Assembly: GCF_037042905.1 (NCBI RefSeq)
Contig: NC_087245.1
Span: forward strand, 28,894,001 to 28,958,000
Source of the DNA: Lytechinus pictus
Lineage: Eukaryota
Length of the DNA stretch: 64,000 nt
Direction of reading: 5' to 3'
The notes beneath the pieces were generated by a model. It ran no database searches. It was not told the DNA's origin and worked only from the letters and a program-made list of their open reading frames with translations. This document shows, piece by piece, positions 401 through 25,559 of the stretch. The stretch's first letter is position 1. Each line of letters starts with the position of its first letter. A program made the translations under genes and the position numbers.

Positions 401-660
401 ATTATCATATATTGAGCATGCATTTTGAGACTACTATGTAACTATGATCAAACTGTTGCAACATGGGTAGATGGTAATGCATACGGTGTTGGGATTTCCC
501 GTTATTGTTCATGAATTTTGCTTTGTGATATATCTTTGACGTGCAGTCCTTGTTGAAAGATACCGTTTAAATGTCAGACGCCATATTTATAATTCGTGTA
601 ATCACTGATATTATTTGATGAACAGAACCGAATGTGAATATCAGCAGAATTAGTACCAAA

Positions 661-739
661 ATGGCGGATTTGATGTTAACTTCTCTCCATATTTATCTAC
701 CAGTACTACTGATGTTGTGTACCCTAGCAACGTGTAAAT
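661..739 (+). CDS. Exon 1: signal peptide MADLMLTSLHIYLPVLLMLCTLATCK
   Basis: ATG in good context (accaaaATGG); hydrophobic core; phase-1 donor t|gtaagt at 740 is compatible with the Ig exon. Confidence 0.75.
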
Positions 740-1247
740 GTAAGTTCGCTGGCTCGTTGGCTGGCAAAACAAACATGAATGTGAATTATGAACGTATTTG
801 TGTAATTTGTGCACATAAGTATTTAACGGTTTGGTATTCCTAGCAGTAAATGAATCTTGAAAAATTGTATTTTTATTAACCCCATTTATCAAAAAGCTAA
901 ATGTTTTCTTCTTTTTCTTCTTTATCAGATCTTATAGGTAGTATAATAAATAATATCTTTTGTATTGATGATGGTGATGAAAATAGTGATGATGACAATG
1001 ACGACGACGACGATGATGATGAAAATGGTGATGGTGGTGGCGGTGATGATAATGATAATGCTGACGACAGTGGCGTACCTAGGATTTTCCACAGGGGGGG
1101 CAAAACCGTCCGCCCAAAAATTTGACAAGCAAGGTCTTCGATCATAAATAAAGGATTTCGTTCCAGAAAAAAATTGACAAGCAAAAAAAAAAAAAAAAAA
1201 AAAAATCGATCATAAATAAAGGATTTCGTTCCAGAAAAAAATTGACA

Positions 1248-1284
<37 letters not shown>

Positions 1285-1329
1285 TCTTCGATCATAAATA
1301 AAGGATTTCGTTCCAGAAAAAAATTGACA

Positions 1330-1364
<35 letters not shown>

Positions 1365-4300
1365 TCTTCAAGCTCGTCAAGGGGGGCAAAAAAGGTTTTT
1401 CAAGTCCGTCAGGGGGGGGCAAAGATACGTTTTTGCATGGGTTGTGACTCGTCAGGGGGGGCAGAGTGCCCCCCCTGCCCCCCCCCCGTAGGTACGCTAG
1501 TGGCTGACGATGGTGATGATGATGGTGGTGGTGATGACGACGACGACGATGATGATGGTGGTGGGGATGATGATAATGATTTGTTGATGAGGGTGGTGAT
1601 GATGATAGAGATGATGATGGTGACGATGGTGAAAAGTAAAAAAAAAAACTTTAAAAGTAAAAAGAAAAAAAAAAACCTAATTCAGATATTGGTGGGTATT
1701 ATACCCGACTGGTCACAGCCACCAGCTGAACGGCTTTCAATCATCTCCGAGGCATCGGTATATGTGTAACTTCATGCGTTACGCATCCCAAACCCACCGT
1801 GCCCATGGAGTGTAAGATATCAACTTAGCTATCTCGCATCCTATAATCATAACCACGATATAATAACATCATTAGTTATAGTCAAAACATCAGCTGCATT
1901 GAAAATAATTATTATAATAATGAGTGATAAAGAATTAAAGATAATAATGATAGAGAAAACGATGATGATGATGATGATGATGATGATAACGACGATACTG
2001 GGTTACGTACCCCTCGGGTCCTCGGTGGAGCAGGTGGAGCAAGGTTGCTTCACAATGACGTCATGCCTAAATCCGGATATGACATCATCATGACTATGCA
2101 CGATGTAATTGTGACGTCATACCTAAAAACGAATATGACATCATCATGACTATGCAAAATGTCATTGTGACGTTTCGGCTGCAAGCTGCTAGACTTCGTC
2201 AGGCAATGAACAAAGACTGTGTGTGTGTGTGTGTAATTGAGTTTTGTCAGACGTGTATCAATCAGATATGATTATTTACGTCTGGGACCGACCTTTAACG
2301 TCACCATCCGAAAGACCAGGGCTCGAACCTCTGCATCAATTTGTAACATCCCCATATAGCTTGGATTACAGGCGCACGCCACAACGCCCACGCCCACGAC
2401 GCTATTATCTGGCTCCACTCGGGCGTGAGCCGCGCTGTGATTGGCCGATGCCGCTGGCCAATCAGGGTCCGCGCTGGTGCTTGGTGCCCGCTGGAGCGTG
2501 CACCGTGCGCTGTGACTGGCCGATGCAGCCGGCCAATCAGCATCCGCGCTGGTGTCAGGCACCCGCTGGTGCGGGCGCCGCGCGCTGTGAACGGTGGATG
2601 CAGTATGCCGTCGGATGGTAGGTAACCATTCATCAGGGATCTCAATGCCGCTGTCCCTGTTGATATTACTCGGGTGCAAACGATTCTGAATCGCTTCCTT
2701 AATGCGCCGCGTACACCAATGCTTATCATTAGCAATGCAGCTGACCTCATCCCAGTTAGGTGGATGATCGGAGTCCCAAGCATGTTCTGCAACAGCAGAG
2801 CTATCAGTGCGCCTCAGCCGAACATCACGGCGATGTTCCTTCATGCGTTCCCCCACAGGTCTACCAGTCTCACCGATGTAGACTTTGTCGCAAGTCGAGC
2901 ATGGGATCTTATAAACAACCCCATCGCGTCTGTCGGGGATCGGGCGGTCTTTCGGACGGACCAGCTGGCTGCGGATGCTGTCGGACTTGAATATAACTCG
3001 GATGCCATGCTTCTCCAAGCGCCGGCGGAGAAGATGCGCGATACCATTAACAAACGGAATTACTATAGCGGATTTAAATTGCGTAGGCTGTTCGGACGGA
3101 GCGCTCTTCTTCTTAGCGACGCGGTTAACGAAGGAGCGCGGGTAACCGTTAGAAATAAGAGCCGAGGTGATGTGTTGCTTCTCTGTAGCTGTGCAATGGG
3201 GCTTAGTAACGATGCGTGAAGCTCTGTCATAAAGACACTTCACTACCCCGCGCTTAACGGACTTCGGGTGATGCGAATCATAAGCAATGTACTGATCGGT
3301 GTGCGTGGGCTTCCTGTATACGGTGGTGTACAATCGGCCGCTGGTGTCACGGTGCACCATAGTGTCTAGAAAGGCAATGCGCTCGTTGCACTCCATCTCC
3401 ATGGTGAAACGGATGGATGGCTGCTGCGAATTCATGTGGCTCAAAAGGTCATTGGCGGCGGATCTATGCGTGATAATAAACGTGTCATCTACATATCGCT
3501 TCCAAACTCTAGGGGCGCAGTCGGGCGGGCAAATAATCAGTGCGCGTTCCTCAAAGGCTTCCATGAACAGGTTAGCGATCACTGCGGAAACAGGGCAGCC
3601 CATGGCGGCTCCTTCTTGCTGTTCGTAGAAATTGCCGGCAAACATGAAAAAAGTAGATTGCAAAACAAAACTCAAAAGCTCAGTTACCTGGGCCGGAGAT
3701 AACTGTGTGCGCTCGGGTAGACTCTCATCACGTTCGAGTCTGGTAAGTGCGACCTTGCATGCGGCGTCAATGGGTACATTGGTAAACAATGACACCACAT
3801 CAAATGAAACCATGTCCTCATGTTCCTGTATGGTTTCGCTGCGCAGGAAATCAACAAACGATGCGGAGTTATGGACAGCATGTCCATTGGAACCGACTAA
3901 GGGAGCAAGAATATCAGCGAGATACTTAGACGTGTTGTAAGCAAACGAACTCACACATGATACAATTGGACGGAGCGGAATGTCAGCTTTATGGATTTTA
4001 GGTAGTCCATAGATCCTGGGCGGTTGCTTCTGCGACGGTCTTAGCTTACGGTAGGTAGAATCATCGATGTCACCATTCTTGTGAAAGCCGCGAAGAATAG
4101 TGGAAAGCTTGCGGGAGAGGCGATCGGTCGGGTCCTTCCCAATAGCGCGATAGGGGCCGGATTCAATTAACTCGGACATCTTGATGCGGTAGACATCGGT
4201 GTCCAGAATAACACTGGCGCGGCCTTTTTCTGCTGGTAAAATCATAATAGACTCGTCTTCCTTGAGCGATTTCAAGGCTTTGCGCATGCCGGGAGTAATG

Positions 4301-7300
4301 TTAGGTTTAGGCGGTTCGGCGGAGGAGAGGATAGCATTTATCTCTCTTCTTACGGAGCCGATGGTCTCGGCATCAAGCGAACGGATGGGAGATTCCACCT
4401 TTGCAACAATCTCGGTAGCGGGAACACGCTTCGGGGCTACTGAAAAGTCCCTTGGCGAGCAGCGCACTTTCATCAGAAGTCAGTTTGCGTTTAGACAAAT
4501 TGACGACCCGAGAGTTAGTATCGGCACATACGGAAACATCCTTACCCTCTAAACTAATCTTGCGATACTTATCCTGTTGTCGGGACTTGCACTTCTCAAA
4601 TTCGTAGCGGTAGATATATTATATCGTCGAAAAGCTGTAGAGCACTGTTGTAGTGCTCTTCAGCGAGCGCGGAACGGACAAGGGTATAGTCCAGGATAGA
4701 AGGGGTCGAACCTTGTTTTTTTTATATATACAATGTTTTTTTATGGTTTCTTGTCAATTCGAGGGTGCTGATTCCGAATCTGAATGATGCCACTCGTGTA
4801 ACCTTGAGCATTTTCTGCAAATTGGCAAAATCCAACATGGCCGCCAAAACATTCAAATTACCCATGAAAATCATAAAATTGTCCACACATTGGCTATAAA
4901 GTACATGCAATTGTGCTGCCGGAGTGAAATAATATCTGAAAAAAATGATTTTTCTCAAAATATTTATTTTCTTGATATCAAAATGGCCGCCATCATAGAC
5001 CCCTGTACAATATGAATGGGGAAAATTAATTTTTACAAAATTGAGCACTGAAATGCAAGTAATTATGATCTATGAGTGAAGCAATGTCTGACAACATGAT
5101 TGCTAACGATATATATCATTTGTTATGTCAGTAATATGTGATAAATCCTGTATTTTGATATTCAAAATGGCATCCAAAAGCCCTAAAACTATTATGTACA
5201 ATGTGAATGGTGACACAAAAAAATCACAAGAGTGAGCACTAAAATGCATTTTGTTTAGATAAACGAGTGGAATACTGACTAAAAGCATTATTGTTAAGGA
5301 AATTTATTATTTAACATGCCATGTATGTGATAAACCCTGTATTTTGATATTTAATATGGCCGCCAAAGGCCCTAAAATTATGATCTACGATGTGAGAGAG
5401 GACAAAAACAATCACAAGGTGAGCACTAAAACGTTTATTTTTTGTGGTAAATTAATGGAATACTGTCTTCAAATATAATTTGCAACGAAATATATTATTC
5501 GGGTTTCATATTTGTGTTAAATAATGTATTTTTACTTTCAAAATGGCCGCCAAAAGACATTGACTATATTATATACAATCGATCTGGGAAACCAATTTTC
5601 ACAGGAGTCAGCACCATAACATGCATATAATTGTGATTTAAGAGTAAAATATTGTCTGAAAACATAATTTCTAACAAGATATATCATTCATTCTGCCAGG
5701 TAGGTGATAAATAATGTATTTTGAAAGTCAAAATGGCCGCTACAGGCCCTAGCGGTAGGCCTATTATGTACTTTGTGAATGGGAACATATAATTTTAACA
5801 GAATTTGGCTTTGCTTGACTAAATGGTGTTGCATGTATGAGTGAAATATCGTCTGAAAATATGATTTTGTAACCAAATAGATAATTTCTTATGTTATTTA
5901 GGTGATAAATGCTATATTTAAATTTCAAAATGGCTGCAATATGTTTCTTTGTGGAAATTATCTTTCCCCATTCAAATTGTACATATTAAGATAAGGGACT
6001 ATGGCGGCCATTTTTCATTTTTAAAAGGCTGCATTCATCACCTTTATGACACAAGCTATGATATATTTCGTTAGAAATCATTGGGTTTAGACAATACTTA
6101 ACACTTACATCAAAATAAGCCATTTTCATAGTAAAAATTTTGTCAAAATTATCTGTCCCCAGTTACAATGTACATACTACTTTGGGCTATGGCAGCAATT
6201 TTGAATTTCAAAGTAAGGCCTTTATTACCTTCTCAACCATTATGTGATGCATTTAGTCAGAAATCATGTTCAAGACAAAATTTTACCTATACATCACATA
6301 GTTACGTGCGTTTTTGGTTCTCATTCTGGTGATGATTAGTTTCCCTATACGCATGTTACAGAATTTGTAGGGGCTTGTGCGGCCGTTTTGAAAGTCAAAA
6401 TACAGTATTTATCACCTACATGGGAGAGGAAATGTTATATTTCATTTAAAAAATCACGTTTTCAAACAATATTTTCCTTATACAACAGAATTATATGGAT
6501 TTCATAGTCAGGCAAATCTTAATTCTTTCAAAAGTATTTATCCCCATTTACATTGTAGATAATACTGTAAGGGCCCATATGGGCCATTTTGAATTTTACA
6601 ATACAGCATTTATCTCATGCATGAAAAAGGAAATGATATGTTTCGCCAGAAAACATGTTTTTAGACAATATTTCACTCGTAGATTACAATTACATTCATT
6701 TTATTGTTTTTACTCTTGTGAAAATTAGTTTCTTCATTCGCTTTGTTCATAATACAGATAGGGCCTATGGCAGCCATTTTGAATGTCAACATGCAGCATA
6801 ATTACCGAAATTGCAAGGGAAATGATATGTTTCGTTATAAATCCTTGTTGTCAGACAGTGTTACACCAATATTTCGCAGTTATTGGCATTTTAAAGTCAA
6901 ACAAATTCAAAGGTTGTGAAAATTGTTTGTCCCCTTTTATATATTGTACACAGTATAATGGGTCTATGACAGCCATTTTGAATATCATAATACAGCATTT
7001 ATCACATTAGATAGTATACAAATGACATAGTTTTGTTAATAGTCATGTTTTCAGACAGTAGTCCACTCGCAGGTCACAATCACATGCAATAATAGTGCTC
7101 TTGTTTGAAAAAATATTTTTCCCCATTCATATTCTACATAATTAAGTATACAGGGGTTATGGTGGCCATTTTGAATATCAATAAAATAAATATTTTGTCA
7201 AATATTGCTTTTCCAAGTGGGATTTCACTTCTGCACAACAACTACATGCATTTTATAGCTAATGTGTGGGTAATTTTATGATTTTCATGGGTAATTTGCA

Positions 7301-10300
7301 TATTTTGGCGGCCATATTGGATTTTGCCAATTTGCGGAAAATGCTCAAGGTTACAAGAGTGGCATCATTCAGATTCGGAATCAGCACCCTCGAATTGACA
7401 AGAAATCATCCAAAAACATTGTATATCTAAAAAAACAAGGTTCGACCCCTTGTCTATGGGGCCTATCCTGGACTAGTAGTACTGGACTCAATCTCGGCGC
7501 GGATAGACTTAAGAGTCATGCGGGTGAGGCGGATTCTTTCGCGAAGGAAAAGGCGGGAGGTCCTCTCGGCGATGATGCGTGCTGACTTGGTGGGTACTGG
7601 CGGGCGAACTCTAAGATCTTTCGGGATAACGGTGTTCTTGATGCAACGGGTTAGGAAGGTGAGATGGTTGGAAAATCTCGCGAGTTTCTTCGAGCAGCGT
7701 TTTATGATTATCATAAAAAGTAATGATTAATTATTAATAGTAATTTCAAATAAACAACTACGAAAAAAAAATTCCAACCTTTGTATTGATATGTTTATTA
7801 AGTTGATCGTCAGACATTCGTTATGTTTTCATAGCAATTTTGTTTGGACTGATAATAATAAAGATAATGATAATAATTAAAATCATAGCAACGATATTAC
7901 TAATGCTACTACGACTTATATTATTAATAAAGAAGTAAAATTCACTATTGAATATTGATAGTTCTGATGACTAAAATAGTGTTAAAGATAATAATAAAAA
8001 TAACGAAAATAGTAAGTATAAATATTGTTAATTCTGATGAAGAAAATAGTGTCGAAGATAATAGTATTGAAATAACGACAATGATTATATAATTAATGGT
8101 AATGATGATAACAGTATTGCTAGATAGCAGCGACTATTATGATATACATACCTTTGCCATCCCTGGGTCTTGCAGGTGAGGTTGATGAACAGAACATAAA
8201 TGGCTGGCTTGGGCAAGATAATGTACGACTACCTTGTAACTTTCATCAAGATGTAATAGTTGCGCAACTATTACATCAAGATGTAATAAGTGCGTTGTAC
8301 TGGTCTAAAATGAGAGACCCAACCAAGGCTGAAGAGGAAGACTCAACCAAGGCATCCTATTTTAAAAAGCAGCTGAATAGCTTGGAGGACCGGTTTACTT
8401 TGAACGAGGATTTTTCTCTCTCCATCAGTGACCTTCAAGTAGCGGATGAAGGGAGATACCTTTGTCAAGTTGAGTTCGAATCAGACAAGAGTCTGTTAAT
8501 GTACCAGACACTGACCGTGTACGGTAAGAATGCATTTTTTCCAATCATCAAAATAAAAAATTCTTGTTGGAATGTTTAATCAAACGTTGATGAATACAAC
8601 AGAATGCGAATAAAGCACACCAACAGTTAGATGTATGCTTACACCCTCGCCAACATTCACAAACATTATAAATATACAGTGTGTCCCACAAAAAACGAAA
8701 CCGAGATTTAGCGATGATTTATCATAACTTAATCATAAATACAATAGACAAATGACCTACCATTGTAAAGCTTAGAATCTCCTCTTTCATCTGAAATTAC
8801 ATTGATTATTCCTCATTCACGCATGAGTGAGCAAAAACAATTTGAAGAAAGGATACCAAAAAATCATTTGGCAGGGGGTATTTGAATTTCAAAAAGAAAA
8901 TCCCATGCCTAAAAAGTTCAATATCTGCTCTGTTATTTGATACCTTAATCACAGAAAACGGTCAAGAAGTAAAAAAGTTATGTTCCCTCGAAACAATGCT
9001 TGTATTTCCATAATTTCATTAAATAAACGTGTTTTCACCAGTTTCCCACAGAAGCTATCGCACGGTTAACAAAAGACTTAAAGGTATTGTTTGACTTAGT
9101 GAGCAGCCGATTAAAAAAATTCTTAAACCTAGATAAAACATGTGTACAAGTGCATGTATTAGAACTAATAAACCCTGAAAACAACCATTATTGAGAATGA
9201 AAAGCTAAAACTACAAGGCAAACCCCGATTTTGTAAATAGGTGTCTTATCCTAAATAGTACACATAAGTGTATGGGATGAAATTAAGATGGTGTTTTCGG
9301 TCACTTTATATTTCGATTTTTGAAGCACTAAATAATTATTTTCGAACGCAATTTTTTCTGGGCTTCATTTTTGTAACATATCACAGACACAGGTGACAAG
9401 TGTGACCTTCTAGCTCAGATTTTTTAAAAGTCAAACCAATGTTAACCAATCACTTTAATGCATGGAGCTATTAATAGCTCTATGCTTAATGCATGGCTGA
9501 TCGTCAACAAAACGGAGTGTCGAGTGAGTCTGAACGCTCTCCTGTAAAACCTCTTCATTTTATGAAATTATTGAAAATCAAGCCTTATTTCAAATAACCA
9601 AAACTTTGTTATTTGTTGACCATTTTCTAAAAATGAGGTATCAAATTAAAGAGCAGATATTGAACTTTTTAAAAATGTGGTTTTCGTTTTGAAACCCAGA
9701 TACAGCCCGCCAAGTGACTTTTTGATATCCCCTCTTCAAATTGTTTTTGCTCACTCATGCGTTAATGAGAAATAATCTAAGTAATTTCAGATGAAAGAGG
9801 AGATTCTACACTTTACAATGGTAGGTCATTTGTCTATAGTATTTGTGATTAATTTATGCTAAATCATCGATAAATCTCGGTTTCGTTTTTTGTGGGACGC
9901 ACTGTATATATATATATATATATATATACATATATACATACATATATACATATTGATTTAAGCCGCACGCCTACCATAGTTCTCTTCATTAATTTTCTTT
10001 CACAACACATCTAGATACAAGAGTTGCCAAATGTACTTGTATTTAGTTGCTGATGTACATATTATATTTTATCTTATATAATACAGTCAGATAAATCGTT
10101 CGAAATCGTCACCTTTGAAATAGACCTGAGGATAATCCATAGTCCAGATTTTGACTGCAGAATGGTGGTAGTGGTGACCTTTCTGCCCATCCAGTTACTC
10201 GGTTAACCTCTGATATTAAACGTACACGTCGACCCAATTGAAGCAACTACCCCACTGGAATGGATAGTGTCCCACAGTGTGTGTCACAATGTGTTCACAG

Positions 10301-13300
10301 TGTGGAACACAATGTGAAATCACCTTCACACTTGAATTTGAGAATTTTAATTACAGTGTGAGTAATATCACATAGTCCATTATGTGAACAAACTGTTATC
10401 ACACTGTGGTCTTTCTAGCAGGAAAATTGTTAAACAGGCATTATTCATGAACACTGCAAAAATGGGAATATTAAACAAGTCAGCTATATGTTGCGAGAAG
10501 AACTGGCAAAAATTAAATATCAATATGATCGATGTGTGTGTGTATACACAAATACACAGCAAGTCGAGGAAAAGCGTAAAAGGTGGCCATTCCTTGTAAA
10601 GACGGACGCGATACGACAAAAAGACGCCATCGCGCTAGTTTTGGACTGCTTTTACCGTGACTACATCTGTCCAGTTTGGTCTGGGTGCTTTATCAGTTAA
10701 TCACTCCTCCAGTTTTTCGAGGCTGAACTTTTTTTCTCTCAATTATTCCCTGGGATGTGGACATTGGTTTCAAGTCAGGGTTTGACTTGGAGCTTATCGG
10801 TGCTAGAGGCTGTTTTTTCTGAGAGCATGTCTGATCCAGCCCCACTTCACAAAACCTGTTTTGCTTCTGGTTCTCGAGGCGCTCATTCTTAATTCCTAAT
10901 ATTCCCAGGAGAATGGATGCTGTAAGTTCACCACAGTCAATTATTATCGAAAAACGCATTGACCCTTCTCTTATTTTCTCATCATCTCTGTTACACAGAT
11001 CAATTTTTGTCATCGCATTGAGATTAACATTCGAAGCTTGCATTGGCTCCTCTGCATACAGTATCTTGCTCGAAGTTCAGATGCTTTTCAGTGTGATGAA
11101 GGCCGACCTTGGCTTACCTATCTTTTCTCCACACGATCCAACCACACTTCCCCAGTTAGTGCGTACATTGTTTCAAATCACTAATTGGTCTCAGACGACT
11201 ATCAATGGCGTGGTATAGCCGTGGCATTGATATTTATCACCTCGGTTTTCTTCATGTTGATTCTCAGTCCCGTATAGATTGTACCTTTTAGACGATTGGC
11301 ATATCATGTTTCATCTGGTTATTATAGTGTGACTGGCGAGGACAAGGTCTTTCAGATGTGTCCGGAGCGTTCCTCTCGCTTGTCGTCGTAGTCTTCATAA
11401 TCTTGTCAATGGATAAGAGCTAGAAGACGAACGGTGACAGGAAGCACCCTTGACGTACTCCGGTCTTCAACATGTTCAACTCGAAGTTTCCGACACCTGG
11501 GGCCCGTAACACAAAGGTTAGCAATGATCGTAGAACATTGTAGCCAATGGAATCAATCGTAGAAATCAAGCTTACGATTAATCACTAACCTTTGTGTTAC
11601 GGGACCCTAGTCAGCATGATCAATCTTGCATGTCAAGTTTTGAAAGGTGTTCCTGTTGAGTGAAATGATTTATCCTCAGCTTCGTATTTCCTCAGCCTCA
11701 TTCCACAGGACGGACTTTTAAGACCACCGAAAGAGCGAATACTGGCAAGGATTTTAGCCATTGGCAAGACTCCAATACATGGAATTTGTGATATATGTGG
11801 AATGGCTTAAAGAAAAAAAAACCTACCAGGGGCGTTGATCATTGGGATTGGGTGGGGCCCGTGGGGGTACAGTGCCCCACAGTTTGAAGCACTAAAAGTG
11901 TCCCTTTTAATTCACCCAGGACAAACTGCCCCTTACAAACATGTTCAATGCCCCTTTCATCCTACAAGGACCCGTTGTATGTGTTCATGAGTGCACCACT
12001 GCCTTCTTCTTATAAGTGTCCGTTCTCGTATCTCAGTGATAACCATCCTCTAAAACCACTCTTTCCATGCCCGGTCAGCGCCCTTTTTCCTTATTAAGTG
12101 CTCTGCTCCCTTCTGCAACTCCATTTTTTGATTGATAAATCCCCTTCAAAAGGTTACACTTTTTTAATCTGCACTTTTTTAAATCTGAATAAAATTTGGT
12201 ATAAAAGTATTCATACTCATATCAGTGATTAAAACAATTATTCCAGTCTAAGACCAATATCTTCACCACCTCATGTGCAAATTGTAATTACAAAATGGCT
12301 TATGAAAAAGAAGCGATTCACAGATTGGCCAGTTATTCTCTCTTTCTCTCTTTCTACCCACTATTAAAAGAACAAGGGATGTTTCCATCGCAATATATCA
12401 TCATATTTAGCGTACTCGGGTTCTTCATTCTGATCGCTCTCGTAGCCATCATAACTGTTCTTTGCAGAGGAGCTACAACTCGCACTATCAAAGGTACAAT
12501 AATTAGCTACTATAACATTTTAGATAAATTTTTACTTAGCTACATTGCGTAAAGATCGTTGAGACATAGTGCGACGAGCCAATGAATATATATGTCTTCT
12601 CATTTTCTGCTTCAAGAATGTAAATAAAAAGACTTTTGATTTTAATATCTATCAATCTATTATTGCTTCAACTCTGCAATTTTGTATGGGAAAAAAATAT
12701 TTTTTTTACAGATTTCTCAAGAAAAATGAAAAGGGGAACGTGGCATCATCGTTTCATTCATCGCATTTTCATGATTGGGTATTTTTCATTCCATTTTGTT
12801 TGCCATTGTTTTGGTCTTTAAATTAGATTTCTTTAAATCATACAACTTTTTCAAGATTTGGGCAATTCTATAAATTTTGTCATATCAAAACCTAGTTTAC
12901 AAGGTGTGTTGCCTATGGCGCAACACCATGACATCCCCATAAAAATCTTGAGATGCCACCAGTCTACAAAGTGTGCAGCATTTTTAATGGTTTAATTTCC
13001 ATTGTACTAAAATGAAAGTAAAATGTGTTTCATGGCACACGATATGAAAACAAAGTTTTCATGTCGTGCATTATGGACACGGAAATAAAACGAATAGGCA
13101 CAGGTTAGAATGGTAAGAAGTAAAGGTATTTCGAAAGTACAAAGCAAGTTCTTTATGGTAATACAATCACTGAATTATCATATTCACGTGTTTATTGTAG
13201 CTCTGATATCATTAAAAACCAGGGACCTGTAAACGAATTTTAACAGGAGGTGCTGGTTTGAATTAGGCAAGCAAAAAAATTCAATAGAAAATTAATGCCA

Positions 13301-16300
13301 TTTTGGTCTCTAGAAATTTGACAAGCCCCCCCCCCCCCCCAAGAGAGAAGGTTATTTTATTATTTACCACACCTACCATATTTCCAGGGCGTGCTGCTTA
13401 TGATGAATAATACTACACAGCATCTCTGCTTTCCAGGGCCATGTTAAAAACACAGTATAGGCATAATGCTCTTTGTCTTAAGCACATTTTTGAGTTACTT
13501 TCATCGTTCACTTTAACATGTTTAATAGAACTGCGAAAAAGTATCAGGGACTATACCTTCAAGATACCGGACAGTGATGACAAAGCAACGGCAAAAATTG
13601 GCTTGTATGGTGAGATGGGAGCAGGCAAATCTACTTTCATCAATTCCATCGAGTTTGCGTACAACGGTGAGAGAATTGAATTTTGAATAATTTTCTTTGA
13701 ATGCATCTTTGTTAAAAATGTAGATATGGTAGAACTGCAGATTTAGTATAACAAATTTATATTCTAGATGTTTGTTCGGATTATTTTGTTCTAAAAAAGA
13801 TCGGCTATTTATCAAATTGTCTATGACCCCATTTACACATACGAGTGAAGAAATATGTGAACGTACGTATGTGTAAACACACAAGCGGACTGATATGGTT
13901 GGCCATCGTGGTCATAATCCGCATTATACGTATCCATATAGTCCAGGATAGGCCCCATAACAAATTGACCAAACCTTGTTTTTTCATATATACAATATTT
14001 TTCTATGGTTTCTTGTCAATTTGAGGGTGCTGATTACGAATCTGAATGGTGCCACTCGTGTAATTTTGAGCATTTTCCGCAAATTGGCAAAATCCAATAT
14101 GGCCGCCAAAATATGCAAATTACCCATGAAAATCATAAAATTGCCCGCACATTGCTTATAAAATGTATGTATTTGTATTGCAGGAGTGAAATACTCTGTG
14201 AAAAAAAAAACGATTTTTGCCAAAAAAAGTATTTTCTAGATATTGAAAATGGCCGCCATAGACCCCTGTATTCTATACTATGTACAATATGAATGGGGAA
14301 AACTAAATTTCACAAAAGTGAGCACTAAATGCAAGTAATTGTGATTTCTTAGTGAAATAATGGGTGAAAACATGATTGCCAATGAAATGTATCATTTGTT
14401 ATGTCATGTATGTAATAAAATGAAGCATTTTAATATTCAAAAAGCCACCAAATGCCCTGACAGTATTATGTACAATGTTAATGGGGACAAGAGAAATCAC
14501 AAGAGTGAGTACTAAAATGCATATTACTAGTAAGATAAGCGAGTACTGGCTAAAGAACATAATTTTTAACGAAATATAAATGCAATTTATGTGATAAATG
14601 CTGTATTTGACATTCAAAATGGCCGCCATAGGCCCATTATATGTACACTTCGATTGGAGAAATTAATTTTCACAAGAGTAAGAACTATAAAATGCATGGA
14701 ATTGTGATCACCGAGTAAAATAATGTCTGAAAACATGTTTTCTAGCGAAACATATCATTTCTTGTGTCATGCATGAGATAAATGCTGCATTGTGAAATTC
14801 AAAATGGCCCCTATAGGCCCTAACAGTATTATCTACAATGTAAATTGGGACATGTAATTTTGTAAGAATTTGGATTTACTTGACTATGAAATCCATAAAA
14901 CCCTGTTGTATGATAAAACATTATTTGAAAACATGCTTTTTATGAAATTTACATTAAAAATAGCTGATGCAAGCCCTAACTAAATTATGTTACATGCGTA
15001 TAGGGAATCTACTTTTTACAAGAGTGGGAATCATAAAATGCATGTAACTGTGATGTATGAGTAAAAATATTGTCTTAAACATGATTTCTAAATAAATACA
15101 TCACATATTGGTCATGGAGGTGATAAATGCTGTACTTTGAAATTCAAAATGGCTGCCATAGGTCCTAAAAGTATTATGTACATTGTAATTTAGGACATAT
15201 AATTTTGACAGAATTTGGCTTTGCTTGACTATAAGTATTGCGATGTAAGAGTGAAATATTGTCTAAAACCATGGTTCCTAACGAGGTGTATGATATCTGG
15301 TGCATTTAAGGTGATAAATGCTGCATTCTGAAATGGAAAATGGCCGCCATTGGCCCTTATTGTATTATGTACAATTTGAATGAGGAAAGATAATTTTCAT
15401 TTTCTTTGAAGATTTGTTTTTTTCCGAGTTTTTGCACCATTCTTGCCAAATGAGGGCGCTGCTGACTCCAAATGGATATAGTTTTACCAATAAGCCAGTT
15501 CGTAGTTCCACTCTGCGCATGATCAGAAGATTCTGCGCATGATCAGAGGAAGATCATTTGTACTAAAGTGACATGGTGGTTTAAAATTTATTGAGATAAG
15601 CACCAACTTCGATGTCTTGATTATTCATATATTCTTTTGAATTGTGTTTTTCGTTCACATCCACAAAAAACAATGCGTCCACCATTGACTGGTATACTTC
15701 ACAGTTTGCCAAGTACATCGTACAACATCCGCTAATATGCATTCAAAGTAGAAATGCAACAAATACCTTCATAGAGTGTTTATTGATGTGCTATTCTCGT
15801 CTCCTGGTCTATTCAATTTCTTCATCTCGCTATGTAAGGCATGCATACGTAATATTTTGCTTTGAAATCTTAATGAAAGAAATGCAAGGTCATTTAACCA
15901 ATATTGCCCATGAAGTAACTACGAATTGGTCTATTAAAACACTTGTTCTTACTTTGGTATACACTTAGTTGTATATCTTGAAAATTTGATGAAGTTTGAT
16001 GCGGTATTCACTGAGTAAAGATGATTTAAACTCATTTGGTGAATTCGTGTGGCCTAAGAGAGGCATAATTCTCTTGATTGCGCGAAATTGCATATCATGC
16101 AAATACGGCGACTTTGAAGACCCGTAGAAACAAATAAGCACATGAACCTATATTATTTTTTGCATTTTTATAATGCACAGATACCAAAGTAACTCTCTGC
16201 AAAATTTGGTGAAAATGACATGGACTTCATTTTAACTGTGGAACGTCCTTAATCGGCTTTTTCATAGCGTGTAAACGCGATTAATTTGCATCGGCTCGCG

Positions 16301-19300
16301 GTTCAGAACCGGCAAATTTGCTCTACCAAAGTAGTAGGTTCAGAACCGCGAGCCGATGCAGAATCGGCTTTTTTACTACGTGTAAACAGAAAGCCGATTC
16401 TGCATCGGCAATTGGTGCGCATTTCATTTACTTTTTTGACAGGCGAGCCGATTCTGAACCGCGAGCTGTAACAGCGTGTAAGCCAACGAACGTAGAGAGC
16501 AGCAACACACAAAGCGTGTTGCTATTGCCGTGGAGGTGCCGTGGCCGAGTGGTCTAAGGCCTAGGTGCCGCGGCCTGGGATCGAACCCCGGACTTTCTAT
16601 ATAAAGCCAGGCGCCTTAGACCACTCGGCCACGGCACCTCCTCCTACTTCCTAATTTGTAACGACTTCAATTAACTAGTAAAGGCTCGCTTGGCAATCGG
16701 ATGTTTATTTTCACTTTTTTTTCCATAAAGGCTCGTTCACTACGTTGAATTGATATTGGATTTAGTATTATTTAAAGGTTTTTCAGTTTTTTACACTGGC
16801 AATCTTTTCACCAGATTGGACACCCAAAACCATGCACTCTCACAGGTCCTGGAAATAATAAACTCGCTTTGCTTGCTCACACATTGATATAAATCGGCCC
16901 TGAAACCCAACTGTAATGGTGCTTTTGTAGTAATTCACATTAAAATATTGACCGAGTAACATAGTTCAACACTAGCCTTTACCTGCACGTCAATTTGAAT
17001 ATAGCTGATTTACGCCAATGATGAGCATACGAATTTTACTCACAACTTCCGTATAAACTTCTTGATTGTAAAGGGCAACGAAGCCAGCCTACTAGGCGAA
17101 GAAGATATGCAGGTGGAGGTCATAGTATGATTCGAAGTTGCCTTCCTCTCACTGACTATATTAGTCTGTTCGACAATCGTGGCATGAGCGACTTTTCTCA
17201 CTCATACGTTGACAAGTATATGAAAGAAATAAGTAAGTACATGCTATTTACATTCGAAGCAGGGGCGGCGATCCAAGGGGGGGGGGTGGGGGCGGTTGCT
17301 CCTTCGCTTTTGAATTTCTCCAAAAAGTTTACGCGTACTGCCCCTCCCCTCCTCCAGCGAAAAATGTCTGCATACTGCCATGTTTAAGACAGTGCCCTTT
17401 TCGAAAGAAAGGGTGCACTTTTCCTTGTGCCCCCCCCCCACTTTCAACTTTGCCGCCCCTGATTCGAAGCTATTGGATAGCTACTGAATATTTTCCCACT
17501 GATGCTGGATCGTAAAAAGCGTGAGAATAAGATCTAGAATATAAAACAAAACAGAAATTAAAGGATAGTACAAAAAGAGTTTTCTTTTCTAAGGCTTTCG
17601 ATACAATAAATCATGTTATATCCTACCTAGAGTAAATCCTGTATAGTGATTGGTTCAAGTAGCATCATGTGACCTAATATATTTCAACTATGATGTTGCG
17701 TGACGTCAGACCTCGATATATTTTTGGATATATCGAGGTGTGACGTCATTATTTCGAAAAACTGGATATCTAGCTAAACTCTCGGGCGCACCGGCCAGCG
17801 CGCTCTCTCTCCCGGGCAAGTCCAGCGATGCGTCGGCGCAGGCACTAATCTGCGTTCCGCTGAGCGCGGTGGCTCGGAGAAAAGTAGGTAATACAACTCA
17901 AGTAACCGGACTTTGCAAGCTCAACACATATATTTTGGTTGTTAATTATCAAAAGTAGGATATAAAACAAATATACCAGGCGTTTCATTCGAAAGCATAG
18001 TGGGAATTATTAATCCTCGGTTGGACTGGCAAAACTACTATATTTCCCTCGGGGCTTCGCCCCTCGGAAAAAATAGTAATTGCCAGACCAACCTCGGATA
18101 AATAATTCCACTATACTTTCTCAAAGCCTGATATATTTGTTTAATATACTATTATACAATATTAATTATTAAATAATCAGGGGATAGTCTTGGAGTGGTT
18201 CCGGGAAATACCTCAACAAGGTAGCAGCATGTTCCATTTGCAGTGCATAATAACCAAACCAATTTCATGTGGAGTCTCACAAGGCTCAGTATTGCCTCCG
18301 CTACTTTTTCTTGTTTACGTATTATGGTTTTTGGAAATACTTTTTCTTTTTGCAGACGACTCAAATATATTCTTTACCCATAAGGACCCAAAACATTTAC
18401 TTCATACATTCAACCAAGAATTGACAGAGGTCTTGGAATGGATCAAAGCCAATAATAAAATTATCGCTCAATTTACCCCACCCCCCCCCCCGCAGTAATA
18501 GTAATATCATAGATTGGAAAGAACATGTTGATTATACTTCTAAAATAACTTCACGAAACATTATAACTATAAATAAGGATTAGTCTTATACAGGCCCGGT
18601 CTTACAAAGAGTTACAATATTGGTCCAATCAATCTCAACTGTATGGAAATCCACCCATACCATAATTTTTTCTACAGGAAATTTGCACAAATCTCCTTAG
18701 TAAACATGGTAAACAGAGAATCACACTGAATTTTCAAGAGAACAATGAATATACATCATACCTAGAAAATATTGTGAACAAATTTGCATTTTAGATGTTG
18801 ACGCTGCTGGCCATCCATAGTTGTGATTGATCAGATCAATCGCAACTCTTTGTAAGACGGGGTCCTTATCTTGAATCGTTTTGTTATGACATGCTCTTGT
18901 ATCGTTTTGTGTCTTGTTCTTGTAACGAAAATACACGATGTTGCTTAAACATTAATGGTATGTATGTCACAAACAGTGGATTTATTTTAGCTTTAACGAC
19001 GGGATGAATATTTTCTTTGATATGGGACACTATCGTCTCTTTTTGAAATAAAAGTTATTCTCTTTTTGATATCTAGGTGATGAAAAAGAAGCCGGAACAC
19101 AAACTCGTCTACTTGATGAAGAGATTCAATGCGTCGTATTTGTATACAGACATAGGTGAGATGGAGCATGACATGGCGGGGGGGGGGGGGGGGACCACCT
19201 CATCGGATTTCCAGCTACTTGAAAAGTTATACCTAATTACAATGCCTGTGAAAGAGGATTCTTTTGAATCACATTTTCCCCGATCGGCCGCTAAAAGCTG

Positions 19301-21076
19301 ATTTGTGTTGTTTTCCTTTGTTTTAGAGGGTACTCCGAATTGAAGTCTCAAGTTTTAAGTACATCTTAACGTTCATCTTACAAACAAGAAAAGGTTTTTC
19401 ACAAAATCTACAAATGATACGAGCGCGAAGCGCGAGCTCAAATTTTTTGGGATAATTCATGTATTTAAACCTGAAAATCGAATATTCTAACAAATTATGA
19501 TATAAAACACGACGCGTATTGATAGCTACTATGTGTAATCTTTTACAGTGGTGATAACACGAAGCAGGATGCTAAGAGGTTCCTAGATAAATTCGCAACA
19601 GAACTTCGCCGGTATTTTGGTAGGTACCAATAAAGGTGACACGACATTATACTCCTACATTTGCTCCGGTCTTAATATCTCAAAGGGGATTGGGATAGAG
19701 TTAGGATTGTAATATATTATTTTATTTAGAATGATAGATAAAGATTAGGGCAACGAACGTAAAGGGCAGCAACAAACTTCAGTGTGTTGCTGCCCTCTAC
19801 GTTCGTTTGATTAGGGTTTATTTAGTTTTGGAGGTCAGGTATTATGTTTGACTTGACATGCAGATTTTTACATCGGAGCAATTGTTGCCGGAGCAAATGT
19901 CATGGAACCATGCAGTTCGTAGAAAAAATCTGCGCATGTGCAGATTAATGTAATTTCCTCTGACATGACACTCGTAGATTACCCGACGTAGCAACATTGA
20001 ATTCATGAAGAATGGTACTGAAATCATCAAGCATCACTGATCATTGAACTGAAGTGGGTGGTAGGATAGCTACATTCTTGAAAGTTGCTTGCATAAATTG
20101 GAATGCCCTACATGACCAGTCTATAGTTCATTATGGTGCATTCCATGATAACCATATGGAGGTATTCATTTGTCCAATTGGAATCAAAAGCTATTTAATA
20201 ACAAAGCACCTTTTTTATTGTGATTTTCTGATCAAATTTCTCACCCCCACACAAAAAAGAGGATAAATTGAGCGATGCACCTCGTCATTGATATTCATTA
20301 GGTAGGCTAATGATGTCCCATCCCCACTTTCCTTTTTCTTATGTTATAAAATGAAATAATAAATGTTTTTTTCATTCATGTGTGTCTTCATTATGATGAA
20401 ATAAGTTGTGGCTATAAATAAATAATGCCCTTAATCAGTTGTCAATCCAGTTGTTTTATTTCTTGGTAGAAAATTTTTGAATAAACCTAATTTCATATAA
20501 TAAAATACAAAAGAATAAGTGGGGATATGACATCATCAGCCCACCTAATGAATATTCATAAATACATTCCTAGAACTGTTTTATCGGAATAATGCAAATC
20601 TTTAAAATTTAATAACTTCGTTATTTTTTATCCGATTTTGATCAAATTTTTAGCATTTTGCTTTGTGAATTTTACTCTATTTATTGAGATATAAATATTT
20701 CCAGCCTGGACCATCCCTTTAAAGTGATGCGTATTAAAAAATGTGTTGACAGTGATCTAACATACTGGCCTTAATCATTACGTACTAATACTTTCTTTAA
20801 TTTACAGGCTACTCTGCATTTGTTGTCGTGACCCATGCTGATAGCTTGTCGAAAGAAGCAAAGGCAGACCTAAAGGAAACATTCTCCCCGATTTGCGATA
20901 AGTTGTGGTTCCTTGAAAATTACACAGACGACATCGAAGATAAAGAGAAGAGTATCAGATTTTTGAAGTTTCTGAAAGCAGCTCTTCATCGCTGTGACGT
21001 TGCCATAGTAAACATTGAGAGGCGGAAGACACAAAGGAAGAAAAAGTGGTTTTGGCAAAGGTGGTTGGGTTGGTGA
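661..21076 (+). CDS. Spliced 8-exon gene: signal peptide-IgV-TM-IFI44-like P-loop GTPase (421 aa); exons 661-739, 8176-8523, 12371-12493, 13529-13666, 17074-17232, 19077-19155, 19549-19619, 20808-21076
   Basis: All introns are GT-AG. Intron phases 1,1,1,1,1,2,1 join without a frameshift or internal stop (79+348+123+138+159+79+71+269=1266 nt). Domain order is coherent for a type I membrane protein. Confidence 0.85.
960..1630. repeat. (GAT/GGT/GAC)n low-complexity trinucleotide region
   Basis: Visible microsatellite; it is the source of the spurious poly-Asp/poly-Met ORFs. Confidence 0.85.
1068..1502. mobile_element. hAT-type MITE with 8-bp TSD
   Basis: Imperfect TIR cagtggcgtacct...aggtacgctagtg; TSD gctgacga at 1060-1067 and 1503-1510; three internal poly-A-containing tandem units. 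Confidence 0.8.
2162..2209 (-). ncRNA. Minimal type I hammerhead ribozyme (degenerate) of the Penelope-like element
   Basis: Minus strand reads tcattgc-CTGACGA-agtctagcagcttgcagcc-GAAACGTC-acaatga. Core boxes are present, stem I is tcattg/caatga and stem II is imperfect. Confidence 0.65.
2272..4473 (-). CDS. Penelope-like reverse transcriptase + GIY-YIG endonuclease (true start is upstream, lost to frameshifts)
   Basis: RT motifs PRIYGLPKIHK..PLRPIVS, SFDVVSLFTNVP, GAAMGCPVS, RYVDD and IAFLD; endonuclease motif GVVYKIPC..C..VYIGETGR....RMKEH. Confidence 0.95.
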   Translation of the reverse strand: MKVRCSPRDFSVAPKRVPATEIVAKVESPIRSLDAETIGSVRREINAILSSAEPPKPNITPGMRKALKSLKEDESIMILPAEKGRASVILDTDVYRIKMSELIESGPYRAIGKDPTDRLSRKLSTILRGFHKNGDIDDSTYRKLRPSQKQPPRIYGLPKIHKADIPLRPIVSCVSSFAYNTSKYLADILAPLVGSNGHAVHNSASFVDFLRSETIQEHEDMVSFDVVSLFTNVPIDAACKVALTRLERDESLPERTQLSPAQVTELLSFVLQSTFFMFAGNFYEQQEGAAMGCPVSAVIANLFMEAFEERALIICPPDCAPRVWKRYVDDTFIITHRSAANDLLSHMNSQQPSIRFTMEMECNERIAFLDTMVHRDTSGRLYTTVYRKPTHTDQYIAYDSHHPKSVKRGVVKCLYDRASRIVTKPHCTATEKQHITSALISNGYPRSFVNRVAKKKSAPSEQPTQFKSAIVIPFVNGIAHLLRRRLEKHGIRVIFKSDSIRSQLVRPKDRPIPDRRDGVVYKIPCSTCDKVYIGETGRPVGERMKEHRRDVRLRRTDSSAVAEHAWDSDHPPNWDEVSCIANDKHWCTRRIKEAIQNRLHPSNINRDSGIEIPDEWLPTIRRHTASTVHSARRPHQRVPDTSADADWPAASASHSARCTLQRAPSTSADPDWPAASANHSAAHARVEPDNSVVGVGVVACACNPSYMGMLQIDAEVRALVFRMVTLKVGPRRK
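4687..7475. mobile_element. 2.8-kb foldback-type non-autonomous DNA transposon (Academ-like TAG...CTA ends, probable 3-bp TSD GTA)
   Basis: TIRs >300 bp (tagtccaggatag...ctatcctggacta); ~190-bp internal units flip orientation near 5960; flanks are gta (4684-4686) and gta (7476-7478). Confidence 0.85.
8176..8523 (+). CDS. Exon 2: immunoglobulin V-set domain
   Basis: Acceptor cttgcag and donor g|gtaag. Motifs VRLPC..., LYWSK, RFTL..FSLSISDLQVADEGRYLCQV..., LTVY give the canonical Ig Cys-Trp-Cys and DxGxYxC pattern. Confidence 0.92.
8677..9904. mobile_element. Tc1/mariner-type MITE with long TIRs and TA TSD
   Basis: ta|cagtgtgtcccacaaaaaacgaaaccgag ... ctcggtttcgttttttgtgggacgcactg|ta. Confidence 0.85.
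9082..9454 (+). mobile_element. TTAA-flanked (Kolobok/piggyBac-like) MITE, copy 1, nested in the Tc1-like MITE
   Basis: ttaa|aggtattg...caatcact|ttaa; near-identical copies at 33024-33400 and 41096-41473. Confidence 0.85.
10560..11800 (-). mobile_element. Decayed RTE-clade LINE fragment
   Basis: Minus-strand remnants KTGVRQGCFLSPFVF (~11420-11470) and IGKPRSAFITLKSI*TSSKI (~11060-11120), with many stops and frameshifts. Confidence 0.7.
11500..11608. mobile_element. Short PIF/Harbinger-like MITE
   Basis: TIR gggcccgtaacacaaaggttag ... ctaacctttgtgttacgggaccc. Confidence 0.65.
12371..12493 (+). CDS. Exon 3: transmembrane helix (YIIIFSVLGFFILIALVAIITVLC) followed by RGATTRTIK
   Basis: CT-rich tract plus aag acceptor; donor g|gtac; phase 1-1; 24-residue hydrophobic run followed by basic residues. 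Confidence 0.85.
13529..13666 (+). CDS. Exon 4: P-loop/G1 (ELRKSIRDY...KIGLYGEMGAGKSTFINSI)
   Basis: Acceptor tttaatag and donor g|gtgag. Walker A GxxGxGKS/T in a context resembling IFI44/IFI44L (IRxY...ILLxGPxGAGKSSFxNS). Confidence 0.9.
13939..15400 (+). mobile_element. Second, left-arm-only copy of the foldback element
   Basis: Begins tagtccaggataggccccata, aligns to the 4687/7475 TIRs and carries the same aaaatggccgcc units. Confidence 0.85.
16532..16641 (-). other. tRNA-like/SINE head with inverted duplication of its 5' end
   Basis: Minus strand has A box tggccgagtgg, B box ggttcgatcc and acceptor-like stem ggtgccg/cggcacc; perfect 29-bp IR at 16532-16560 and 16613-16641. Confidence 0.65.
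17074..17232 (+). CDS. Exon 5: GTPase G3 region (LTDYISLFDNRGM)
   Basis: Acceptor taaag (weak) and donor a|gtaagt; open in the expected phase; DxxG motif after a hydrophobic strand. Confidence 0.8.
17260..17461. mobile_element. hAT-type MITE with 8-bp TSD
   Basis: caggggcggc...gccgcccctg flanked by attcgaag on both sides. Confidence 0.8.
17585..18470 (+). mobile_element. Decayed Crack/L2-like LINE RT fragment interrupted by a hairpin element (~17617-18147)
   Basis: SKAFDTINH at ~17590; GVSQGSVLPPLLF and FADDSNIFF at 18270-18375. Confidence 0.7.
18593..18865. mobile_element. Harbinger-like MITE (related copies at 46525-46668 and 60118-60255)
   Basis: TIR gtcttacaaagagttac ... gcaactctttgtaagac. 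Confidence 0.65.
19077..19155 (+). CDS. Exon 6: DEEIQCVVFVY strand
   Basis: Acceptor tctttttgatatctag and donor ag|gtgag. Read in phase 1 (not the ORF-track frame), it resembles the IFI44-family D-x-IHCVxFV motif. Confidence 0.85.
19549..19619 (+). CDS. Exon 7: helix SGDNTKQDAKRFLDKFATELRRYFG
   Basis: Acceptor ttttacag and donor g|gtaggt; a phase 2-to-1 exon that exactly bridges exons 6 and 8. Confidence 0.8.
20808..21076 (+). CDS. Exon 8: G4-like THAD, LENY motif, C-terminal helix, basic/Trp tail, stop
   Basis: Acceptor ttctttaatttacag; reads GYSAFVVVTHADSL...WFLENY...FLKFLKAALHRCD...; TGA at 21074-21076. Confidence 0.88.
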
Positions 21077-21767
21077 GCATCGATGGATGATATGTCTCGA
21101 GAGAAAATCTGAAGCACGTAGGAAAAATGCTTTTAAGTACCAATGCGCAAATACGTGGTAAAATTTGTCCCATTTGCGTGGAATATGGCCACTGCAGTGA
21201 TGCGAATACACTTACCACATGCTACTTATACTAACAAGTGCGATCTGTAAACACATTTAATTCTTTTTCTGTTATATAATTTTATTAATGAAATTTATTG
21301 AAAAACAACATTATCAAGCCAAATTACCACCCCCCCTCCAAAAAGGTGAATTACAGCCATACATACTTAATTCTTTGTGAAACCATGGAGATAGTGTCGG
21401 TCTATCATTTCTTGGATGTCATGGATGTAATCAGAGGCTGTTCTTCACGCCATGTACATGTACATAAAAAAGGGGAAAAAAAGGAAAATAAGCAAAAGTG
21501 TATACATTTTCATTATGTAAAAAATAATGTTTTATATTGTACATAATCGGTGTTTGCATTAAAATAATGGTAGAGCTGACTTATTAGTATAAAAAACAAA
21601 AATGGTAAAACGTATGTTCGTCTTGTACTATATTTTAAATGTGTACATTATAGGTTTCGAAAGGGGAGTTAGCTCTGGGGAACCTTGATCTAAGGTACGC
21701 CTATATTTTCTTTCACAACACATACATTCACCCACCCTCCTACACACATATGTATGTGTAAATGTAT

Positions 21768-25425: not shown

Positions 25426-25559
25426 AATTCTGAATACTTGTAAAAAAACACGCACACACACAAAGTATTCAAAATATCTTATTCAAATGTGCAATATATT
25501 TTTATGTAGTTCTAGTTTAGTGAGTTCTAAGAACTGATTTGTATTGTATAGATAATTTT

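Follow-up and report, generated by a model that had tools for sequence, protein, structure and literature searches.

A sea urchin gene joining an immunoglobulin domain and a predicted transmembrane helix to an IFI44-related GTPase domain

Single-pass receptors with an enzyme domain of their own mostly carry kinases, phosphatases, cyclases or TIR proteins, and we know of no characterised immunoglobulin (Ig) receptor with an intrinsic GTPase. Whether such a receptor exists in sea urchins is the question raised by a stretch of 64,000 nucleotides of the Lytechinus pictus genome (assembly GCF_037042905.1, NC_087245.1, positions 28,894,001 to 28,958,000; hereafter the window), in which a gene for an Ig V-set (IgV) domain, a transmembrane (TM) helix and a cytoplasmic IFI44-like P-loop GTPase had been predicted from the letters alone. 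Every motif named in this original prediction is present on the + strand of the window, and the eight exons join in frame, as had been claimed, to 1266 nt that encode 421 amino acids (aa) with the motifs in the expected order and a lone stop at the end. All seven introns of this Ig-GTPase gene have a GT donor and an AG acceptor. The spliced product is identical, letter for letter, to the database protein P0002, which is isoform X1 of L. pictus LOC129265391, and the gene is already public as that model, labelled 'uncharacterized'. The features of the gene are as follows.

661..739, +: exon 1, start codon and putative signal peptide (aa 1-26; hydropathy 1.95 for aa 4-22)
8176..8523, +: exon 2, Ig V-set domain (aa 27-142; Cys47, Cys123; Pfam PF07686, E 1.1e-10), with a 27-nt internal duplication
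12371..12493, +: exon 3, predicted TM helix (aa 152-170) and a short basic juxtamembrane stretch; skipped in isoform X2
13529..13666, +: exon 4, first helix of the GTPase domain and G1/P-loop GEMGAGKST (aa 211-219)
17074..17232, +: exon 5, switch I (Ser247) and G3 DNRG (aa 263-266)
19077..19155, +: exon 6, a loop followed in the list of motifs by the core strand IQCVVFV (aa 299-305)
19549..19619, +: exon 7, which encodes a helix of the GTPase domain
20808..21076, +: exon 8, coding part, with G4-like THAD (aa 341-344), ENY (aa 369-371), a long C-terminal helix and the stop
21077..21400, +: 3' untranslated region (UTR), at least this far (X1 record 8; RNA status of the run guessed)

The signal peptide and the TM helix were called from hydropathy, the mean of which is 1.95 at residues 4-22 and 3.27 at residues 152-170, and the layout is read as that of a type I membrane protein with a signal peptide, an IgV domain, one TM helix and a cytoplasmic P-loop domain that ends in a basic and Trp-rich tail encoded by exon 8. 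Isoform X2 (P0001) equals P0002 minus the 41 residues encoded by the TM exon, and because exons 2-5 are of phase 1 at both ends, each of them can be skipped in frame. A further database model, P0003 (501 aa), was rejected, as it takes an exon from the opposite strand of a retroelement in intron 1 and leaves the TM exon out. Each coding exon is present once in the window, and no other protein-coding genes were recognised among 25 frames scanned in the rest of it. We regard the gene and its architecture as practically certain.

Several observations indicate that the Ig-TM and GTPase exons are parts of one transcript. The proteins P0005 and P0007 (528 aa) carry a signal peptide, IgV, an Ig C-set (IgC) domain, a TM helix and a G domain in one unbroken frame, and come from Logan contigs of 1741 and 1950 nt, which are too short for the introns of the genomic copies and hence most simply represent spliced mRNA. 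Both are 72% identical to P0008 of Strongylocentrotus purpuratus, and the window protein, P0008 and P0005 cluster at 100/99 support in the G-domain tree. Contigs of four runs, the RNA status of which is a guess, were compared with window positions 8100-21400. X1 record 8 covers 20807-21400 with 0 mismatches, has 7 non-matching letters before its start and extends past 21400; X3 record 32 starts at 20807 and is preceded by 173 letters that do not match there; an edge at 20807 is also seen in X11 record 16, and X11 record 9 coincides with exon 2 (8176-8523) from end to end, with 27 gaps. Contigs that start or stop at exon edges in this manner would lend the transcript indirect support. Two paralogues 4.6 Mb away, near P0012 (41% identical to the window's G domain), have four G-domain introns at matching places and phases, as judged by eye, and the gene structure is therefore not due to chance. 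The complete layout in one frame on short Logan contigs, together with the same layout in five urchin species and at seven or more loci, argues that two genes were not merged, and the claim of a single gene with an Ig-TM-GTPase membrane layout has thus stood.

A paralogue expansion, for which a search had been suggested, was found. Five loci of the L. pictus genome (the window, C1:24.31, C1:24.26, C8:14.97 and C8:1.70 Mb) have Ig, TM and G exons in this order, and at C8:4.24 and C8:4.28 Mb, where Ig and G exons were looked for, both kinds are present; the resulting count of at least seven loci is a lower bound. A database search of 1.84 billion representatives gave 95 proteins at E up to 0.001. 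Names were looked up for 26 proteins. Those among them with Ig, TM and G domains belong to L. pictus, L. variegatus, S. purpuratus, Diadema antillarum and D. setosum, and none of the receptor type among these 26 is named from outside sea urchins (P0025 is listed without a species). The usual ectodomain of the family is IgV-IgC, occasionally with more Ig domains, so that, of the single-Ig sensor originally proposed, the IgV domain and the TM helix are present and the single Ig is an exception to the family norm. Among 7998 candidates, a profile search for longer members (556-2000 aa) gave no match, which is weak evidence since known members in this range were missed as well, and a metagenome scan with P0008 gave 64 pattern matches, 0 of which were confirmed. 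The tree was built from 24 of 28 candidate domains, with P0057, P0097, P0052, P0112 and near-duplicates omitted. It places nine of ten receptor-type rows and three partial models in one weakly supported group (81/90) and leaves the deep branches open; a single origin of the receptor type appears neither established nor refuted by it.

Related genes of other layouts are found in the same genome. Soluble GTPase types are located on C8, C10 and C13, with G1 and G3 in one shared exon. On C8, a related type is represented by ten last-exon matches, at 31.1-31.4 and 35.7-36.1 Mb, and in the single copy examined, no Ig match was found within 20 kb upstream. These matches belong to two mirror-image arrays, at C8:31.05-31.43 Mb (+) and C8:35.70-36.07 Mb (-), of about ten related GTPase genes of the P0017 type with a CaaX-like end, which may represent a segmental inverted duplication or a haplotype duplication. 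P0040, of this array type, has an N-terminal hydrophobic segment and no Ig. Large tandem arrays of related IgV/IgC exons are present at C9:1.32-1.53 Mb and on C8 (5.2-5.6, 8.3-8.5 and 13.7-14.0 Mb).

With regard to the inner domain, AlphaFold2 with 45 sequences modelled it at a predicted local distance difference test score (pLDDT) of 89.6, whereas folding the full-length protein from one sequence alone gave no usable model (pLDDT 41). In the VIA search with this model, all 50 rows were GTPases or chains containing one, at Z scores of 11.2-13.0: an Arf-like protein (9edr_G, Z 13.0), G-alpha (Z 13.0), Toc33 (2j3e, Z 12.9, root-mean-square deviation (rmsd) 3.8 over 184 aligned residues), EngA (Z 12.5), a septin (5irr, Z 12.3, rmsd 4.0, 187 aligned) and GIMAP4 (3lxx, Z 11.2, rmsd 3.9, 158 aligned). 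Foldseek likewise returned GTPases and nothing else. A profile search of solved sequences ranked septins best (33.7 bits, E 2e-7), then YsxC/EngB, IRG and GIMAP4 (E 0.0025), and identity to the septin/GIMAP/Toc34 group is 15-17%. No solved structure of IFI44 type was among the profile, Foldseek and VIA matches. As modelled, the inner domain thus has the fold of a TRAFAC G domain, without a close solved relative. Pfam matches to AAA_23 and KAP_NTPase were rejected as P-loop cross-matches, the fold being that of a G domain; likewise, P0002 gave no match to NACHT (PF05729) at E up to 1. The G1 motif GEMGAGKS (211-218) and the G3 motif DNRG (263-266) are intact and fit GxxxxGK[ST] and DxxG, respectively. 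The G1 Lys is invariant in a 16-row alignment, and DxRG occurs in nine of ten receptor-type rows, with G3 lost in P0108. G4 reads THAD, in which the Asp of [NT]KxD is kept in the window copy and the Lys is replaced by His. The switch I loop was modelled at pLDDT 57-65.

A profile of ten receptor-type domains, to which the following scores refer unless stated otherwise, was used to place this domain among GTPases. Unnamed soluble urchin GTPases scored 99-120 bits, a Clytia protein 109 and frog-type proteins 97. The 'interferon-induced protein 44-like' of Branchiostoma belcheri (P0071), which contributed to the guide alignment and not to the profile itself, scored 83.9 bits (E 1e-18, profile positions 25-229). 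P0097, which carries motifs that we take to be those of the classic IFI44 type, scored 36 bits; with a wider profile, A1, it reached 58.6 bits as compared with 33.7 for the best septin, and hhalign gave it a probability of 98.3 (E 1.8e-14). In the ESM Atlas, the domain lies beside chordate clusters, one of them 'interferon-induced protein 44-like', with a score of 0.95. The expected match to IFI44-like or TRAFAC GTPases was thereby confirmed by both profile and fold search, and these sequence comparisons suggest that the G domain is IFI44-related and nearer to IFI44-type domains than to septins, yet is a separate branch without the TLDc domain rather than a member of IFI44/IFI44L. No TLDc domain (PF07534) was matched in P0002 at E up to 1, and residues 1-183 consist of the putative signal peptide, the V-set domain and the TM helix. 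A genome search for TLDc gave 7 matches at 4 places, none near the listed G-domain matches. The idea that a TLDc N-terminus was replaced by the Ig sensor is not supported, as the proteins most closely related to the domain, from urchins, frogs and a hydrozoan, are soluble GTPases that lack TLDc (97-120 bits versus 36 for P0097). In the frogs Pelobates and Pelodytes, unnamed soluble GTPases (P0034, P0065 and similar), some with two G domains, outscore IFI44-named proteins against the urchin receptor profile.

The ends of these proteins suggest that the GTPase is a module that always works at membranes. Similar aromatic tail ends are found in P0005, P0008 and P0013; CaaX-like ends, by a loose pattern, in P0107, P0048 and P0017 as well as in several soluble relatives; and some relatives start with Met-Gly. 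A homodimer prediction with GTP and Mg gave a score of 0.00 with the alignment unused, and is evidence neither way.

The Ig-TM part of the family is common to proteins with a different P-loop module. Among 31 mostly Ig-only matches scanned, 3 carry NACHT, and 2 of these 3 have a TM helix. The GTPase protein P0108 and the NACHT protein P0078 are identical at 165 of 279 positions over IgV, IgC, TM and juxtamembrane parts, and P0013 (GTPase) and P0073 (NACHT) at 148 of 263 positions over the same cassette; this corresponds to 56-59% identity between GTPase and NACHT bearers, and beyond the cassette neither pair gave a significant match. This sequence relationship points to module swapping among innate receptors, and the same cassette on two P-loop modules is the best argument for an immune role of the urchin protein. 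The same IgV type was also seen on NACHT without a TM helix in P0072, and joined to a multi-pass 'rolling stone' domain in P0066. A system of similar layout is AjNLRC4, a sea cucumber membrane receptor whose Ig domain is described as binding microbes, and which is described as dimerising after Vibrio infection and driving actin-based phagocytosis (PMC8699970). AjNLRC4 and the window protein both come from echinoderms and both combine, across a membrane, an Ig domain outside with a P-loop NTPase inside; in AjNLRC4 the NTPase is a NACHT ATPase and two TM helices are mentioned in that report (PMC8699970), whereas the urchin protein has a predicted TRAFAC-fold GTPase and one TM helix. The likeness to AjNLRC4 is one of layout, the cassette alignments having been made with P0073 and P0078 and not with AjNLRC4 itself.

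The protein can also be compared with other known systems. IFI44 and IFI44L are soluble intracellular proteins with a homologous G domain and the same motif order; the window protein has no TLDc domain, has DxRG at G3 and, by its N-terminal hydrophobic segment and a TM hydropathy of 3.27, would span the membrane. By profile score, its G domain is closer to the unnamed GTPases of urchins, frogs and Clytia than to the classic IFI44 type, as represented by P0097; no vertebrate IFI44 sequence was among the proteins returned. A putative N-terminal TLDc domain is attributed to human IFI44 (PMC5614904), IFI44 homologues are reported to be upregulated in cnidarian antiviral cells (PMC13319465), and an account of zebrafish counts 19 ifi44 genes with no Ig fusion in the portion of that text that was available (10.1101/693333). 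The septin/GIMAP (AIG1)/Toc34 group, which is membrane-attached, is among the best solved relatives and the tied fold matches, and differs from the urchin domain in that the latter has THxD at G4; to our knowledge none of its members has a signal peptide and an Ig ectodomain. GIMAP/AIG1 proteins have been discussed as membrane scaffolds (PMC3417536). The B7/butyrophilin proteins have an IgV-IgC-TM ectodomain and a globular cytosolic domain, as do most urchin family members; the window copy, however, lacks IgC, and a GTPase stands where butyrophilins have B30.2. A different receptor-GTPase pairing is reported in Aplysia, where TLR-like proteins carry ROC-COR (PMC9334734). Chordate clusters in the ESM Atlas, namely I-set Ig with 'IFI44-like' (75 and 72 members, scores 0.88 and 0.87) and V-set with AIG1 (63 members, score 0.83), also combine Ig and a related GTPase in one chain; they are leads only, at the level of domain pairing. 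P0057, with three Ig domains and an IFI44-like-type G domain, and without a signal peptide, a TM helix or any hydrophobic segment above 1.1, is apparently an independent, cytosolic Ig-GTPase fusion.

On these grounds we propose that the receptor may have been built by joining the Ig-TM cassette of echinoderm membrane nucleotide-binding, leucine-rich-repeat receptors (NLRs) to a membrane-associated GTPase module, and that it would act as an innate recognition receptor on the cell surface or on phagosome or endosome membranes. Binding of a multivalent ligand by the IgV domain would cluster the chains; the G domains, kept at the membrane by the TM helix and the basic, Trp-rich tail (or a CaaX-like end in some relatives), would then pair or polymerise in a GTP-dependent manner, as do those of the septin/GIMAP/Toc34 group, and the paired domains would scaffold uptake or a downstream signal. 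The ligand, GTP turnover, dimerisation and immune role are what we infer here, and the ligand-driven GTPase dimerisation and immune role of the original prediction were likewise drawn by analogy. An immune role seems reasonably probable. The whole chain, in which clustering of an outside-in receptor drives GTP-dependent pairing or scaffolding of membrane-tethered G domains, is our best, if tentative, explanation and falls slightly short of probable, with the clustering mechanism as its weakest step. Rather more doubtful, although possible, is the generalisation to 'receptor GTPases', i.e., single-pass urchin Ig receptors with their own cytosolic GTPase switched by clustering, which would have arisen through a swap of IFI44-related G and NACHT modules behind one Ig-TM cassette.

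A number of observations weigh against this outside-in receptor. In the paralogue pair at C1:24.26/24.31 Mb, which does not include the window gene, the IgV domain differs by 1 replacement and 7 silent changes (dN/dS 0.04), as compared with 31 and 14, respectively, for the G domain (dN/dS 0.57; Fisher p 0.004 versus IgV). An IgV domain nearly frozen in this pair is the opposite of a diversifying sensor surface, and the pattern fits an inside-out or adhesion role, or gene conversion. Nor is the IgV of the window protein more divergent from S. purpuratus P0008 (60/93 identical) than the G domain (143/237). The decay of motifs among paralogues is what would be expected of scaffolds, and guanine specificity is not assured, as the G4 Asp is found in five of ten receptor-type rows, with TH in place of N/TK. 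Fold matches tie across GTPase families, and the septin/GIMAP analogy is not singled out by them. The tree does not unite the receptor-type rows in a single clean clade (5 changes), the Diadema gene models may be chimeric, and the NACHT proteins P0073 and P0078 are gene models. In view of the chordate clusters, pairing of Ig with a related GTPase is not unique to urchins, although the signal peptide and TM topology may be. Judged by its sequence, the window copy itself is a derived one. No IgC exon was found in the window or nearby; the IgV exon 2 carries a 27-nt duplication (self-match 8241-8294) that is absent from P0011 and the X11 contig; switch I reads RRRRYAG as compared with GARGDTA in P0010, which is 91% identical over the G domain; and Ser247 in switch I is Thr in nine of ten receptor-type rows. 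P0011, whose IgV is identical to that of the window at 95 of 106 positions and lacks the nine extra residues, has an IgC exon, as has P0008 of S. purpuratus. A locus for the P0011 type with IgC was not found in this assembly, and P0011, P0010 and P0004 may represent another allele or a copy missing from it. Finally, the 15 joints displayed of 595, which are dominated by intronic repeats, include no exon-exon junction, and specifically neither 8523/12371 nor 12493/13529.

The absence of these two junctions from the displayed joints, and the split or partial state of some database models (P0004, P0009, P0011 and P0105), would suit an annotation artefact in which an Ig-TM gene and an adjacent soluble GTPase gene were fused by prediction. 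We consider this very improbable given the unbroken frames on short Logan contigs and the identical exon order at five loci and in five species; in addition, exon 4 is of phase 1 at both ends and offers no start codon ahead of the P-loop other than the one within the motif, and soluble relatives hold G1 and G3 in one exon, whereas receptor types split them by an intron. An inside-out device is unlikely, and yet has more to recommend it. Butyrophilins work in such a manner, and the cytosolic G domain would here either do the sensing, be it of nucleotide state, a pathogen product or membrane damage, or act as an effector contacting the pathogen, with the IgV(-IgC) part displaying this state outward to another cell or to a fixed host partner. 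This reading accounts for the layout of IgV, IgC, TM helix and cytosolic domain, for an older S. purpuratus model (P0009) auto-named butyrophilin 3A1, for the much stronger constraint on the IgV than on the G domain of the C1 pair and for the variable G2-G4 positions among paralogues. The C1 comparison, however, is one pair with small counts, from which gene conversion could yield the same pattern; no B30.2 domain was found in Pfam scans of the window protein and its relatives, a counter-receptor in urchins is not known, and the cassette common to AjNLRC4-type receptors, whose Ig binds microbes, favours an outside-in direction.

The constrained IgV of the C1 pair would also suit a non-immune protein for adhesion, trafficking or membrane shaping at cell contacts or on gamete or organelle membranes, the Ig of which binds like-to-like or to a host partner while the GTPase tethers or remodels membranes. 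The best solved relatives of the IgV domain, though weak, are the adhesion molecules MXRA8, CD166 and JAML, and double anchoring by TM helix and tail is appropriate to a tether. Tandem lineage-specific expansion with a variable number of Ig domains, and a cassette shared with NACHT proteins, are nevertheless more typical of immune families and make this role rather improbable. Quite unlikely too is that the G domain is a nucleotide-binding or empty scaffold (a pseudo-GTPase) in many members, or that the window copy is a derived, weakened or decoy allele. The G4 Asp missing in five of ten rows and the lost G3 of P0108 speak for the former; the lack of the IgC exon that P0011 (90% identical IgV) and the S. 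purpuratus orthologue possess, the X11 contig carrying exon 2 without the duplication, and the TM-skipped isoform X2, which would be secreted, speak for the latter. Against these stand the intact frame, splice sites, G1, G3 and G4 Asp of the window copy, the invariant G1 Lys, and contigs identical to the window over exon 8 and the UTR.

In the open literature, supplements and subscription papers excluded, no paper describing an Ig-TM-GTPase protein was found, which agrees with the assumption that this architecture is not a described family; the genes may be listed in the Ig tables of the first catalogues of urchin immune genes. The protein is a public but unstudied variant of the echinoderm Ig-TM-NTPase receptor design, and possibly a new receptor class should GTPase switching be shown. 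If the proposed mechanism is true, innate immunity in deuterostomes would include a signalling layout of a new kind, sister in design to the sea cucumber membrane NLRs and a GTPase counterpart of receptor kinases, phosphatases and guanylyl cyclases. The enzymology of IFI44-type domains is poorly known; the receptor would also provide a ligand-controllable handle on their biochemistry, and its natural occurrence as a fusion in L. pictus, an urchin used in the laboratory, makes the effect of clustering a GTPase on a membrane directly testable. Even without the mechanism, a multi-copy family now 'uncharacterized' or 'Ig-like' in databases receives a name.

The DNA around the gene is rich in repeats. 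Exon 1 and the DNA upstream of it lie within a 1.72-kb tandem repeat, the copies of which are 92-96% alike (C1:28885604-28890856 and window 1-895). Just 5' of the window are four further copies of exon 1, each with one base difference and an intact GT donor, and a broken copy lies further 5' of these; the copies possibly serve as alternative promoters or reflect copy-number variation. Intron 1 holds the retroelement mentioned above (window 2272-4479 and 7463-7726, -), whose 735-aa frame encodes a reverse transcriptase (Pfam RVT_1, E 3.4e-6) and, at the C-terminal end, a motif that presumably resembles the GIY-YIG nuclease of Penelope-like elements; the 5' part of the element is seemingly displaced by an insert of about 2.8 kb (about 4680-7475) that has inverted ends. 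Just 3' of the gene, at window 21689-23047 (+), is a young fragment of long interspersed nuclear element (LINE) type (RVT_1, E 3e-30), for which 39 other places at 94-97% identity were found among the 40 that were scored out of 3992 candidates. A minisatellite with a 37-bp unit in about 59 copies occupies window 25557-27722.

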